Origin: Clostridia bacterium
GTDB taxonomy: Bacteria > Bacillota > Clostridia > JAAYHZ01
DNA length: 64,000 bases
Reading direction: 5' to 3'
NCBI GenBank assembly: GCA_050950825.1
Contig: JBMNIH010000003.1
Coordinates: forward strand, 288,001 to 352,000
The notes under the pieces are model-generated. The model worked only from the letters and a program-made list of their open reading frames with translations, made no database searches and was not told the origin of the DNA. The translations under genes were made by a program, and so were the position numbers. This document shows, in pieces, positions 849 through 55,429 of this stretch. Position 1 is the first letter of the stretch. Every line of letters begins with the position of its first letter.

Positions 849-1012
849 TTTATGCCGCGAAAGTCGCTTTACGATGAGTAGACGGCATGTTAGGCTTGTC
901 TGCCTGGCATCAAACACACAAAGCCGTATCCGGCTTCACCCTGTAGGAAGATGCCGCAGAGGCCACTAAACATGCCGGCAGAGGCTCGTCGTAAAGCGAA
1001 CCGTGGAATAAA
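849..1012 (+). ncRNA. Putative structured ncRNA in ISLre2 3' region (copy A1)
   Basis: Nested helices TTTAT/ATAAA, CCGCG/CGTGG, TCGCTTTACGATGAG/CTCGTCGTAAAGCGA, CGGCATGTT/AACATGCCG, TCTGC/GCAGA, GGCATC/GATGCC. A homologue with compensatory changes lies at 4801-4971. Confidence 0.7.
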
Positions 1013-1204
1013 TGAGTACTTTACTTGTGCATTTGCTATTGTCTTCATGAATTCTTAAATAGGTGATGTGTAATAATCAATTAAAAAAACAAATGTGGAA
1101 AAATTGATGGAAATGATATATGATACAGACAAGATTTAATCTTATCATAAGGGTGAACTCTCTCTTTTTATTTCCGAATGTATATTGACGCTATCATACA
1201 ACTC

Positions 1205-3075: not shown

Positions 3076-3232
3076 AAAATATATCTCCGGAAAATTCAAA
3101 ATATGGATTAATGAAACATATCTATTTTACCATAAAACCTGTCTCAAGTCTAGTGTTTTCAAGTGTTTCGAGGCTTTTTAAGAGCCTTTTATGAAATTTT
3201 CTAGGTACATTATATAATGTACCCTATAGCTT

Positions 3233-3380
3233 GGACACTTTGGGTTTTCAAAACCCTTACCATCGGACATTAGGTTTTTGAAAAAACCCTACATTTCGGA
3301 CAATAGATTTTATATAATCCCTGTTGTTCGGACACATGCATTTTCAAAACCCTATATTCCGGACAAGAACAGTTTTTGAC
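3233..3380 (+). repeat. Five degenerate ~32-bp tandem units (GGACA...TTTT..AA..CCCT) in the IS3 left end
   Basis: GGACA at 3233, 3265, 3298, 3330 and 3361 (spacing 32, 33, 32, 31). The first unit is part of IRL. Confidence 0.75.
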
Positions 3381-3429
3381 TTCAATTCAGATGCATATTA
3401 CAATAAATGTAGTTGGATTGGAGGCATAT

Positions 3430-3834
3430 ATGGCAAATAAGAAATTTACCCCAGAAGAAATGTCCGAGTTAAGAAAAAGCAAGTATGTTCTGGATGTATC
3501 ACCAAGCACTGTACACTTCTCTGCGGAATTCAAAAAAGAATTCTGGAATGCACTAATGCAAGGGAAATTACCAAAAGATATAGTTAAATCTCTTGGCATT
3601 AATCCCGAGATACTAGGCGAAATAAGGATTGGCGGATTAAAAACAATGATCCGTAATGAAGTAAAAAAAGGCAATGGATTCCGTGACTTGAATACTTATA
3701 TGCAAGCTGGAAACGGCTATATGTCAGCAGAAAACAGGATTAAATACCTAGAGATGCAACTGGCATATAAGGAGCAAGAGATAGAGTTTCTAAAAAAAAT
3801 TGTATCTTTAGATCCGGAGGCACGGGAATTATGA
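3430..3834 (+). CDS. IS3 transposase OrfA (HTH)
   Basis: GGAGG RBS before MANKKFT; ends LAYKEQEIEFLKKI; A8 tract at 3792-3799 and ATGA overlap with orfB. Confidence 0.85.
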   Translation: MANKKFTPEEMSELRKSKYVLDVSPSTVHFSAEFKKEFWNALMQGKLPKDIVKSLGINPEILGEIRIGGLKTMIRNEVKKGNGFRDLNTYMQAGNGYMSAENRIKYLEMQLAYKEQEIEFLKKIVSLDPEAREL

Positions 3835-4790
3835 TCATTCCTGCAAATGCCAAGTATAAAATCATACAAGAAACAGTAGCACTGCATGGGAATCTTTTAA
3901 ATGTTTCTGTCCTGTGCGAAATCGCTGGTGTTTCTAGATCCGGCTATTATCACTATCTCACTACAGAAGAAGTTAGAAAACAGAAAGAAGAACAGGATCA
4001 ACAGGATTTTCTTCTCATCATAGAAGCATATAAACACAGAGGATATGATAAGGGTGCACGTGGGATTTATATGAGATTACTGCATCAGACTCCACCGGTT
4101 GTCATGAACATAAAAAAGATTCGGCGTCTTATGAAGAAGTATGGATTAAAATGCCCAATTCGCAAAGCAAATCCATACAGACGTATAGCAAAAGCGATAG
4201 GTACTTCCTATGTCGCTCCAAATCTCCTGAATCGCGAGTTTGAGGAACATGGACCACGGAAAGTTCTGCTTACAGATATCACATATATTATTAACGGTAG
4301 AGCACCTAGATGCTATATGTCTACTATTATAGATGCCTGTACAAAAGAACTCCTAGCATGGGTAGTGAGTCCATCTTTGGAAGTTGATTTTGTACTTGAG
4401 ACAGTGAATCAGCTCATTGAAAAACATGGGATTTCCTTAACGGCAGAAACCCTAATCCACAGTGATCAAGGGTCACATTACACTAGTCTTAGTTTTATAC
4501 AGCTGATTAAAAACAGCGAATTAAGGCAGTCAATGTCCAGAAGGGCAAACTGCTGGGATAACGCTCCGCAAGAGTCCTTCTTCGGACATATGAAGGATGA
4601 AATTCATATCGAAGAGTGTAACACTTATGAAGAAATCCTATCAGCAATAACTGACTGGACAGAGTATTATAACTACGAAAGATATCAATGGGATTTAGCA
4701 AAGCTATCTCCTGCAGAGTATTACAAATATTTAACAACTGGCGAGTATCCACTAAATATACCCAAGCCAAATGGATTCAAGGAGAGCTGA
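3831..4790 (+). CDS. IS3 transposase OrfB (rve/DDE integrase core)
   Basis: TDITY, HSDQGSHY, SRRANCWDNAPQESFFGHMKDE. It is in the -1 frame relative to orfA, and that frame is open back to the A8 tract. Confidence 0.93.
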   Translation: MIIPANAKYKIIQETVALHGNLLNVSVLCEIAGVSRSGYYHYLTTEEVRKQKEEQDQQDFLLIIEAYKHRGYDKGARGIYMRLLHQTPPVVMNIKKIRRLMKKYGLKCPIRKANPYRRIAKAIGTSYVAPNLLNREFEEHGPRKVLLTDITYIINGRAPRCYMSTIIDACTKELLAWVVSPSLEVDFVLETVNQLIEKHGISLTAETLIHSDQGSHYTSLSFIQLIKNSELRQSMSRRANCWDNAPQESFFGHMKDEIHIEECNTYEEILSAITDWTEYYNYERYQWDLAKLSPAEYYKYLTTGEYPLNIPKPNGFKES

Positions 4791-4800
4791 TGGGAAGGCA

Positions 4801-4971
4801 GCGTTTATGCCGCGAAAGCCTCTTGACAATGAGAGCCCGGCATGTTAGGCTATCTGACCGGGCATCAACCACCTCCAGAGCCCTTCTGCCTTGTTCAGCA
4901 TGGGGGATGCCTCTGATGCCAGCAAACATGCCGGCAGAGGCTCGTTGTCAAGAGGATCGTGGAATAAATGC
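4801..4971 (+). ncRNA. Putative structured ncRNA in IS3 3' region (copy B)
   Basis: GCGTTTAT/ATAAATGC, CCGCG/CGTGG, CCTCTTGACAATGAG/CTCGTTGTCAAGAGG, CCGGCATGTT/AACATGCCGG, GGCATC/GATGCC; collinear with 849-1012. Confidence 0.7.
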
Positions 4972-5246
4972 GGAAACCTGACTCCGAAACACCGGTATGG
5001 TAGTACTCAAAGTCCGGGACAGGTGAATCAACAGCCACTGAATACTCATTTATGAATTGAAATCAAAAACTCATTTTGTCCTTGACAAAGGGTACACTTT
5101 AAACAGTTAGCTCGGGAACACAGGGCTTTTTCCCGCTTTTAAAATCCTCTTGAACCCGCACGCATCTATGATATAATCTATTTGTTTGTACTGATTATAC
5201 TTTTATCAACAGTTCAAAAAGACAAAATAAAGAGGGATTTATATAA

Positions 5247-13878: not shown

Positions 13879-14013
13879 ATAGATATTTTTCTTATTAGCG
13901 TAAAGTAAGTTTCGGATAATAATCAATGGAGGAATATAACAAATAGAAAGAGGACCCCGATTGTGATATGATTAAATTTCCAAAACAAAAAATCACAAAG
14001 GAAGGTGTCCTCT

Positions 14014-15498
14014 ATGTATAAAAGTATACTACATTTTATTGAAAATGGGTTAGTCGAAATTGAAAAAATGATGGGTGATATTCTGGCAGGTAAAAAAGAT
14101 GCCGATGATTTGACTGCACTCGTTAATAAAGTTACGTCAACGTTAGCGGTCAGCCTTATAGCGGATTTGTACGAGAAAGCTGATAACGATATACGAGAAA
14201 GCAGCGTGAGAAAAAAGTATTGGAATGTCGAGCACAGGAACAAAAAGAAAACCATCGTAGATGTCATGGGTAAGGTTGAATTCTGCCGAACCGGATATTG
14301 TGCGAAAGGAACGGGTGAGTATGTATATCTTTTGGATCAGGTGCTCGGATTTGAACCGCACCAGAAGGTAACGCTAGGCGCAGCTGCGAGAGCCTTGGAA
14401 GAAAGTATAGACAGCAGTTACCGCAAAGGCGGAGAGAATGCAAGCATAAAAGCGGAAGAAGGCATTAGCAAACAAGCCGTGATGGATCTGGTACATGAGA
14501 TTGAGGCGGACATGCCGATGCCGGAACCGGAAGGAAAGAAGAAGATAAAAAGGCTTCATGTCATAGCCGATGAAGATCATGTGGCGGCACAGTTTTGGAA
14601 TGAAAAGGGCGATTTGAAGCGAGATGCGAGGGGCCATAAGATTAATACCCTGATGCCTAAGCTTGTTTGTGTATTCGAGGATATTATCAATGAATCGGGG
14701 GAAGCATCCAAGAATCCCAGATATAAGCTGATCGGAAAAAAATACTTTTGCGGTATTTACGAGGGTGGCAAAGGCAACGAAAAGCTTTGGATGGAGGTTG
14801 CCGAATACATAGAAAAAACATACGATACGGACTATCTTGAGAGAATATACGTAGTCGGAGACGGAGCTTCGTGGATAAAAAAAGGATGCGAATATTTGGA
14901 GAACAGCAAATATGTCCTTGATAAATACCATATGATGAAATATATAAACAGGTCAGTGGCGCATCTTTACGATAGCGCGGACGAGGTGAAAGACTGGATT
15001 TGGGGAGCCTTGAATCGTTTGGACAAAAAGGAATTGAAGAATATCTATGAGCAGATCCTGAAGGTTACGGAAAGTGAAAACAAGAAGCAAGAAGTGGAAG
15101 ATGCGTTAAGATATTTTCTAAATCATTGGCAAGGGATAAAAACCCGAGTGGAAGAAACAAGCGGCTGGACATATTGCATAGAAGGGCAAATAAGCCATGT
15201 ATTGTCGGCAAGAATGAGCAGCAGACCAATGGGATGGAGCGAATTGGGTTGCGACCGCATGGCAAGGCTCAGAGCGTACAAAAGAAACGGCGGTAAGATT
15301 CTTGACTTGCTAAAATATCAAAAACAACGAAAAAAGCAAAAGGAAAGGCGTGAAGCACAAGAAGAATTGATAAGAGATCTGAGAAGAAGACATTCAAAAT
15401 GGACGTATGCGGAAGATACCAGACGTCACATACATGGTTTGGAAAGGAGCAGTATGAAGTGGCTAAAGAATATGACCACACTGGCTTGGGACGCATAA
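14014..15498 (+). CDS. ISLre2-family transposase
   Basis: ADEDH, GDGASWI, LDKYH, IEGQISH motifs; start MYKSIL after AAGGAAGGTG. Confidence 0.92.
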   Translation: MYKSILHFIENGLVEIEKMMGDILAGKKDADDLTALVNKVTSTLAVSLIADLYEKADNDIRESSVRKKYWNVEHRNKKKTIVDVMGKVEFCRTGYCAKGTGEYVYLLDQVLGFEPHQKVTLGAAARALEESIDSSYRKGGENASIKAEEGISKQAVMDLVHEIEADMPMPEPEGKKKIKRLHVIADEDHVAAQFWNEKGDLKRDARGHKINTLMPKLVCVFEDIINESGEASKNPRYKLIGKKYFCGIYEGGKGNEKLWMEVAEYIEKTYDTDYLERIYVVGDGASWIKKGCEYLENSKYVLDKYHMMKYINRSVAHLYDSADEVKDWIWGALNRLDKKELKNIYEQILKVTESENKKQEVEDALRYFLNHWQGIKTRVEETSGWTYCIEGQISHVLSARMSSRPMGWSELGCDRMARLRAYKRNGGKILDLLKYQKQRKKQKERREAQEELIRDLRRRHSKWTYAEDTRRHIHGLERSSMKWLKNMTTLAWDA

Positions 15499-15541
15499 GC
15501 AGCTTGAACCGCTATGACTTTGTAACCGTGTGACGGTAGGC

Positions 15542-15705
15542 TTTATGCCGCGAAAGTCGCTTTACGATGAGTAGACGGCATGTTAGGCTTGTCTGCCTGG
15601 CATCAAACACACAAAGCCGTATCCGGCTTCACCCTGTAGGAAGATGCCGCAGAGGCCACTAAACATGCCGGCAGAGGCTCGTCGTAAAGCGAACCGTGGA
15701 ATAAA
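15542..15705 (+). ncRNA. Putative structured ncRNA in ISLre2 3' region (copy A2)
   Basis: Same sequence as 849-1012. Confidence 0.7.
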
Positions 15706-16052
15706 TGAGTACTTTACTTGTGCATTTGCTATTGTCTTCATGAATTCTTAAATAGGTGATGTGTAATAATCAATTAAAAAAACAAATGTGGAAAAATTGA
15801 TGGAAATGATATATGATACAGACAAGATTTAATCTTATCATAAGGGTGAACTCTCTCTTTTTATTTCCGAATGTATATTGACGCTATCATTTTTCTTTTC
15901 CAAAGTTGACCAATCACAGGGTTTATGATATAATACATATAGTTCCATTTTCTTATGTTTCAGCTAGAGAGCTTTTATATATAGAGAGATACATCCATGG
16001 GAAACATCACCACAGGTGTTTCAAATATATATATTAAGGAGGAGTAACAATC

Positions 16053-55200: not shown

Positions 55201-55230
55201 ATATAACACCTCCTTCCGGGAGTATCGGAT

Positions 55231-55376
55231 ATAAAATAAACCTCGTACATATAGACATACGAGGCTTTAAGAATAATCAATGATTATAATCCATTCTATT
55301 CTTCATGTTTCATTAAAACATTACCTCGGTAGGATGGCTTTTTAAGCTCTTACGAGCTCCTACTGTCTATAGTAAC
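55231..55376 (-). promoter_or_regulatory. L10 leader (ribosomal protein leader/attenuator)
   Basis: TAGACAGTAGG...TTAA...CCTACCGAGG core followed by a CCTCGTA..TACGAGG-T terminator; TTGCTT-N17-TATAAT promoter at 55384-55412. Confidence 0.85.
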
Positions 55377-55429
55377 GTGTGCCATTATACATCAGTTGTT
55401 TTCAAAAAGCAATCGATTTTTTAAAATTT

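Follow-up and report, generated by a model that had tools for sequence, protein, structure and literature searches.

The window analysed here is a stretch of 64,000 nt from Clostridia bacterium GCA_050950825.1 (contig JBMNIH010000003.1, positions 288,001-352,000, forward strand), whose genome is labelled G000. It opens inside an ISLre2-type insertion sequence (IS) on the + strand (1-1195), which is truncated by the window start and reaches its right end, ...GACGCTATC, at 1195. The 3' part of a UPF0236 (ISLre2-family) transposase gene occupies 2-805 (+; Pfam), and its stop lies 42 nt before the first copy of a structured module at 849-1014 (+). An IS3-family element is located at 3213-5101 (+), with ends set by comparison of its four full copies in G000. 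It contains orfA (3376-3834, +; Pfam HTH_Tnp_2) and orfB (3831-4790, +; Pfam HTH_21, rve, and rve_2), and a variant of the module is positioned at 4804-4970 (+), about 12 nt past the orfB stop and about 130 nt short of the IS end. A complete ISLre2-type element of 1995 bp, delimited by comparison of the G000 copies, spans 13894-15888 (+). Its UPF0236 transposase gene (14005-15498, +; Pfam) stops about 42 nt before the second copy of the module (15542-15707, +), which is identical to the first. In the ISLre2-type element, the module is separated from the right IS end by about 180 nt.

The complete ISLre2-type element is flanked by a 9-bp target duplication, ATTTTTCTT, at 13885-13893 and 15889-15897. 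The corresponding empty site is present in one DNA-run contig from an anaerobic-digester metagenome, in which position 13884 is joined to 15889 with 9 ambiguous letters and a single ATTTTTCTT. Therefore, the insertion at 13885-15897 is polymorphic in nature.

A preliminary description of this DNA had placed one module in both IS families, and its positions hold with shifts of 1-3 bases. As it had claimed, the transposases are unrelated (Pfam UPF0236 versus HTH_Tnp_2 plus rve), and all four conserved blocks of the proposed scaffold, TTTATGCCGCGAAAG, CGGCATGTTAGGCT, AAACATGCCGGCAGAGGCTCGT, and CGTGGAATAAATG, are found collinear in the ISLre2-type and IS3 copies. The long 15-bp helix between TTTATGCCGCGAAAG and CGGCATGTTAGGCT, which had been named P2, differs in sequence between the two elements with its pairing intact, as comparison of the elements confirms. 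At the 5' base of copy 1 is the sequence TTATGCCGCGAAAG (850-863, +), which resembles the RSB of plasmid single-strand origins. The -35-like hexamer TTTACG (868-873, +) and the -10-like hexamer TAGGCT (891-896, +) are spaced by 17 nt, and the 3' partner, CCGTGGAATAAATG, is at 1001-1014 (+). The 5' arm of the IS3 variant holds TTGACA and TAGGCT, also 17 nt apart.

Searching G000 with nhmmer yields 29 copies of the module in 11 distinct variants (E 1e-39 to 1e-50), a similarity far beyond chance. The variants are 162-167 nt long and 70-76% identical to the ISLre2 copy. All 29 copies lie within IS256, IS3, or ISLre2 elements or their remnants: 13 in the ISLre2-type element, 4 in IS3 and 1 in an IS3 remnant, 1 after a second, diverged UPF0236 transposase, and 10 in two elements of the IS256 family (Pfam Transposase_mut) or in what remains of them. 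The IS256 copies of the module closely follow the transposase stop, with 58-80 nt left to the IS end, and occupy the other strand; in ISLre2 and IS3, module and transposase are co-oriented. A REP/MITE-like, self-mobile repeat was considered and rejected for G000, as all 29 copies are within larger repeated IS units.

In a census of the same genome, the module is present in 13/14 copies of ISLre2-A, 5/5 of IS256-A, 3/3 of IS256-B, and 4/5 of IS3. It is found in 0/27 copies of four DDE_Tnp_1-type families combined, 0/7 of IS256-C, 0/4 of ISLre2-B, 0/4 of the rolling-circle IS91, 0/5 of the group II intron, and 0/3 each of IS110, IS30-like, and IS21 elements. One family without the module, of the DDE_Tnp_1_6 type, has 13 copies. 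G000 is rich in mobile elements, with at least 15 repeated transposase-type gene families of 3-14 copies each; among the repeats are 5 copies of a group II intron reverse transcriptase and 4 of a Y2 transposase of the IS91 type. At one locus (C2:38744-39256), an ISLre2-type copy ends inside the RSB of an IS256-borne module (...GACGCTATC|TATGCCGCG), and therefore a module-bearing IS has inserted into the module of another IS. At another (C6:110776 onward), an ISLre2-type copy is broken 17 nt past its module by an element that opens with an IS3-OrfA-like frame.

The RNAalifold consensus of the 11 variants contains 53 pairs, and compensatory changes occur in 11 of these. The + strand is more stable than the - strand by 5-17 kcal/mol in 11/11 variants. 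The conserved G-U pairs of the preliminary description are recovered in columns 14-164 (11/11 variants) and 32-148 (9/11), while its invariant GCAGAG segment stands in part: AGAGGC alone is invariant, and the rest of the segment varies. Across 99 aligned modules (97 distinct), in an alignment fitted to the covariance model itself, 93.5% of cells are paired, as compared with 72.8% in shuffles, and double changes occur in 40/53 pairs. When the partners are slid by 1-3 columns, the pairing falls to 34-49%. Among the aligned modules are 80 outside loci that were chosen by a pattern fixing 22 bases at the two ends, and with them the basal helix; the invariance of that helix and the tallies of context are biased accordingly. 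Folded as ssDNA, the + strand has a predicted energy of -43.4 kcal/mol (z -7.3) and the - strand -35.4 kcal/mol (z -4.4). Small ORFs that begin with the ATG of the module were rejected as coding, as their length and sequence vary between variants.

The preliminary description had proposed a possible novel class of RNA. In Rfam 15, the only match of the window at gathering score is the ribosomal protein L10 leader (55225-55390, - strand; RF00557, 68 bits), with none to the module; at E<=10, the two module regions retrieve nothing beyond models of unrelated snoRNAs, lncRNAs, and miRNAs, which score 11-23 bits. In both sequence and structure, the module is homologous to the palA/ssoA origins of plasmids, DNA signals that have been defined experimentally. 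The 11 variants of G000, and no other sequences, were used to build a covariance model, R1. Without filters, R1 aligns over its entire length with pC194 2043-2211 (42.1 bits, E 1.3e-9), pT181 3766-3931 (34.7 bits), and pE194 637-800 (29.6 bits). R1 has no match in pUB110 (ssoU) at E<=0.1, in pTX14-1, or in the ssoT regions of pTA1060 and pTA1040 (best <7 bits, filters off), the positions of which are from PMC4595007. The length given there for the sso of pC194 is 168 nt (Wright et al.). The ssDNA fold predicted for pC194 palA has the same architecture as that of the module. In pT181, the palA match (locus 3762-3931) begins 4 nt past the stop of the mobV/pre relaxase gene; this layout of a recombinase stop followed by an sso is the same tight layout as in the insertion sequences.

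The sequence motifs point in the same direction. The matched pC194 stretch contains TTATGCCGAGAAAATTT and TAGCGT, which are printed as RSB and CS-6, respectively, for pSELNU1 (PMC4598088, in part). The module start, TTATGCCGCGAAAG, reproduces 12 of the 13 leading bases of the published RSB, a count to be read with the 80 outside loci in mind, which were picked by a pattern that includes part of the RSB. According to passages of PMC5703833, ssoA is about 160 nt long, contains the RSB, forms a large secondary structure as ssDNA, is recognised and primed by RNA polymerase, and is active in one orientation only. The RSB is positioned at the loop-distal base of the hairpin and is required for polymerase binding, and CS-6 terminates the primer (PMC8860593, in part). 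Because R1 matches the palA regions and the RSB motif fits this description, the module is assigned to the ssoA/palA class. A lagging-strand origin of this class, carried as IS cargo, is very probably the best explanation of the module, judging from its sequence. As the module appears to be a DNA signal, it is missing from Rfam. A match to an already described family, which the preliminary description had said would remove novelty, is found in spirit; the family is a DNA element and for that reason lies outside Rfam. The option that had been put in brackets there, a module acting as ssDNA, is the one favoured by the palA/ssoA homology and the RSB motif.

The module shares with the ssoA/palA origins of pC194, pT181, and pE194 its size of about 165 nt, its rod-like ssDNA fold, the RSB at the 5' base, and the GAGGCTC and GGAATAAA blocks conserved in the 3' arm. 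It differs from them in that CS-6 is mostly missing: in the apical part, the strict form TAGCG[TA] is found in 2/99 rows and the loose form [TC]AGCG[TAC] in 11/99, with near matches in the G000 variants V4, V8, V10, and V11. Instead, TGnTAGGCT is conserved (61/97 distinct modules). A further difference lies in the carriers, which are IS and serine-recombinase elements in Clostridia chromosomes and not plasmids. We rate the module as a putative CS-6-poor ssoA for which insertion sequences and serine-recombinase elements serve as carriers.

In the 5' arm, 53/97 distinct modules have a -35-like hexamer 16-18 nt before TAnnnT, whereas reverse complements have it in 1/97 and shuffles in a mean of 0.4. 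The pair was counted with a looser pattern along with these controls; a standard promoter scan misses it because TAGGCT has only 3/6 consensus bases. The promoter-like pair fits priming by RNA polymerase. In the Frpo of conjugative plasmids and the minus-strand origins of filamentous phages, a hairpin of ssDNA mimics a -35/-10 promoter, from which RNA polymerase makes a primer or transcript. The module with its -35/-10-like pair resembles these signals by description only, and they are from Proteobacteria. The same arm contains GTTAGGC, which fits the integron attC core consensus GTTRRRY; an attC reading was rejected, as GTTAGGC is in the 5' arm and its partner does not fit.

R1 has matches outside G000 as well. 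In 9/60 other genomes of the same class, R1 finds the module. A pattern of the two end motifs occurs in at least 112 stretches of a species-level genome collection, and R1 matches 79/80 pattern loci among the matches listed, on the expected strand; the remaining locus (L064) has no match. Among the matches listed, the carriers are Clostridia MAGs, Christensenella, Ruminococcus, Tissierellia, Cellulosilyticum, Bacillus, and Peribacillus. The end-motif pattern is present in only 2 stretches among the 2.9 million viral contigs of IMG/VR, and blastn in distant mode gives no match to the module in phage records.

The module is also present on plasmids. An 8-kb Bacillus sonorensis plasmid with a Rep and a MOBV relaxase has a blastn match to the IS3 variant, and R1 matches it over its full length with 70.9 bits. 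The copy on this plasmid in turn matches 86 plasmids, 82 of them from Bacillus, including pFL5 and pFL7. The module-bearing plasmids among the matches listed are mostly of 5-20 kb. The module is on the rep sense strand in both pC194 and the B. sonorensis plasmid. An exclusive association with IS is therefore not borne out, given these 86 plasmids and the serine recombinases described below.

For 91 loci outside G000 (86 strong and 5 weak matches, among the matches listed), we surveyed the neighbouring genes, counting as adjacent an ORF of at least 150 aa that ends no more than 120 nt from the module. Such an ORF is found at 52/91 loci among the matches listed, on the opposite strand in 39 cases and on the same strand in 13. 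According to Pfam, 46 of the 52 among the matches listed are recombinase-type genes: about 20 large serine recombinases, 14 IS256, 3 UPF0236, 3 rve, 3 IS240/IS66-like, 2 IS110, and 1 Mob_Pre. In the tabulation of neighbours that the preliminary description had suggested, the module thus adjoins the 3' ends of genes for transposases or large serine recombinases and can be on the same strand as the gene or on the other one. In other genomes, the carriers thereby extend to IS110, an IS66/IS240-like family, and large serine recombinase elements. In at least six unrelated recombinase families, the module is placed about 0-30 nt from the recombinase stop. The covariation and the neighbours sustain one part of the earlier claim, a selected, structured, and strand-asymmetric element that unrelated mobile elements have in common; the claim of an IS-specific RNA is not sustained.

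At the other 39/91 outside loci, no recombinase ORF is adjacent, and the neighbouring genes vary, with both transposase-related and housekeeping genes among them. Several such solo modules (L033, L035, L038, L039, and others) have no transposase ORF within 120 nt, and some are beside purine-synthesis genes. They may be what is left of elements since lost, or they may have inserted independently. At 11 serine-recombinase loci, all from gut and rumen Clostridia MAGs (L068, L069, L088, L093, L095, L102, L106, L111, L117, L125, and L126), the neighbours include a gene for a rolling-circle Rep (Pfam REP_ORF2-G2P). There, a three-part unit recurs in which the ssoA module is followed by a large serine recombinase in convergent orientation and next by the rolling-circle Rep. 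The module is opposite in strand to the Rep gene. This unit looks like a small integrative rolling-circle element. In a quick tree, from a short alignment and without a shuffle control, the modules mostly group by carrier type, with at least 10 changes of label for six states.

A plasmid-type origin on a chromosomally integrated mobile element has a precedent in sso1 of ICEBs1 and in the sso copies of other ICEs; sso1 has been shown to assist in making the second strand once the element has been excised and transferred (Wright et al. 2015; PMC4595007, in part). ICEBs1 sso1 differs from the module in that it resembles the pTA1060/pBAA1 type, which is unmatched by R1. A further difference is that ICEs are known to pass through ssDNA, whereas free single strands are not known to be released by DDE insertion sequences. 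The bridge RNA of IS110 and the omega RNA of IS200/IS605 function at the RNA level, in partnership with a cognate recombinase or nuclease, and each is specific to its family. The module is like these guide RNAs in being a conserved, structured non-coding module in an IS that adjoins the transposase gene, and unlike them in being common to unrelated recombinases, lying on either strand, and being homologous to a DNA replication signal.

Two readings would deny the module a role as an origin. It could be a structured RNA, that is, a stabiliser or regulator in the 3' UTR of the transposase mRNA, a protein-binding ncRNA, or a ribozyme, as the preliminary description had proposed; we consider this very unlikely. 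The G-U pairs make the + strand fold better, but G-T pairs would explain the strand asymmetry equally well in DNA. The module is co-oriented with the transposase and near its stop in ISLre2 and IS3. In two studies, metatranscriptome contigs run across both the transposase gene and the module; they may stem from DNA carry-over, give no information on ends or strand, and do not demonstrate transcription, but in view of them the module may have an additional role in RNA. However, the module is antisense to the adjacent gene in 39/52 cases (among the matches listed); because it is on the strand opposite to its neighbour in most contexts (IS256, large serine recombinases), it is no general feature of transposase mRNAs. 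No Rfam family matches it even at E<=10, its homologues are origins that act as ssDNA (PMC5703833, in part), and small plasmids carry it at the place and on the strand expected for an sso. That the module is mainly a terminator or insulator against read-through or read-out is highly improbable. A long GC-rich hairpin directly past the last gene and before the end of the element would suit such a role, and an insulating terminator at an ICE end is described for Tn916 (PMC11658703, in part). Against it, no T-tract follows the stem, and a terminator scan finds none on the + strand of the module, its sole match starting at the last base of the module on the - strand. In addition, a terminator would need far less than these 165 nt with their invariant unpaired segments and their conserved RSB, and the homology to palA also counts against this reading.

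If the module is an ssoA-class origin, its working may be sketched from the literature on ssoA. The strand bearing the module would become single-stranded and fold into a long rod. Host RNA polymerase would bind the base of the rod, consisting of the RSB and the promoter-like stem. A short primer RNA would be made, and DNA polymerase would extend it, copying the strand. IS families among the carriers use a circular intermediate in copy-out/paste-in transposition. The conversion of the branched figure-eight to a ds circle needs host replication, and passages of PMC7780238 give no description of how the machinery is recruited. A built-in primer site would convert the displaced, circularised single strand to an integration-ready ds circle.

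As our preferred but tentative reason for its presence in an IS, we consider it possible that the module primes the second strand of the copy-out circle. More doubtful is the broader proposal that ssoA is a working part of copy-out/paste-in IS in general (IS256, IS3, ISLre2, IS110, and IS66/IS240-like) and of the small serine-recombinase elements. By that proposal, the circularised strand would be displaced as ssDNA after the figure-eight, would fold at the module, and would recruit RNA polymerase; the elements would pass through a plasmid-like single-stranded circle and would rely on their own lagging-strand origin instead of the host primosome. The 0/27 copies of the four DDE_Tnp_1-type families in the G000 census count in favour of a link to copy-out. 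Several observations count against it. The orientation of the module to the transposase is not fixed, and circle-forming IS256-C, ISLre2-B, IS110, IS30-like, and IS21 elements of G000 lack it, as does the rolling-circle IS91 (0/4). Where a serine recombinase is accompanied by Rep, the module and the Rep gene are on different strands, and at 39/91 outside loci there is no recombinase ORF next to the module, with some of these loci situated among housekeeping genes. The four sequencing runs, which were used as contigs, include no contig across a circle junction and are uninformative either way. In the main alternative, the module is a real ssoA-type origin and yet a passenger in the IS, with no role in transposition, spread by recombination at the RSB; this is a serious possibility, though short of an even chance. 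It would then be kept because it benefits the plasmids or conjugative elements that receive the IS, or because it lets incoming ssDNA become established, or it would be neutral. Passages of PMC5703833 portray the RSB as a place where plasmid co-integrates arise and describe a shuffling of sso modules in the manner of cassettes, and ICEs bear plasmid-like sso sequences (PMC4595007, in part). In accordance with passenger status, sister families thrive without the module (7 copies of IS256-C, 13 of the DDE_Tnp_1_6 family), its orientation to the transposase varies, solo copies lie among housekeeping genes, and the quick tree needs at least 10 changes of element-type label. On the other hand, the module keeps the same spot, about 0-30 nt from the recombinase stop, in at least six unrelated families, compensatory changes keep its pairing within IS lineages, and its presence in the carrier families is near-universal (13/14, 5/5, 3/3, and 4/5).

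The ssoA class is long known, and plasmid-like sso sequences in ICEs are also known (PMC4595007, in part). In the main texts of open-access papers and bioRxiv preprints, we encountered no earlier description of an sso within a DDE insertion sequence, and the IS context of the ssoA module appears to be new. Should the module be no more than the mark of an already known plasmid signal, the result disposes of a false lead to a new class of RNA and supplies R1, a covariance model that recognises ssoA-type origins, which are unannotated by Rfam or by the gene tables examined. If the IS use the module, it touches an open step of transposition, from figure-eight replication to the ds circle (PMC7780238, in part), and an element of 165 bases would be a simple handle on the commonest route of bacterial transposition. 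The type of sso limits the host range of plasmids (PMC5703833, in part), and an IS insertion that altered the host range of a rolling-circle plasmid has been attributed to the terminal repeats (PMC12016507, in part). If the IS use the module, an IS could also supply any rolling-circle plasmid or conjugative element that it enters with a lagging-strand origin.
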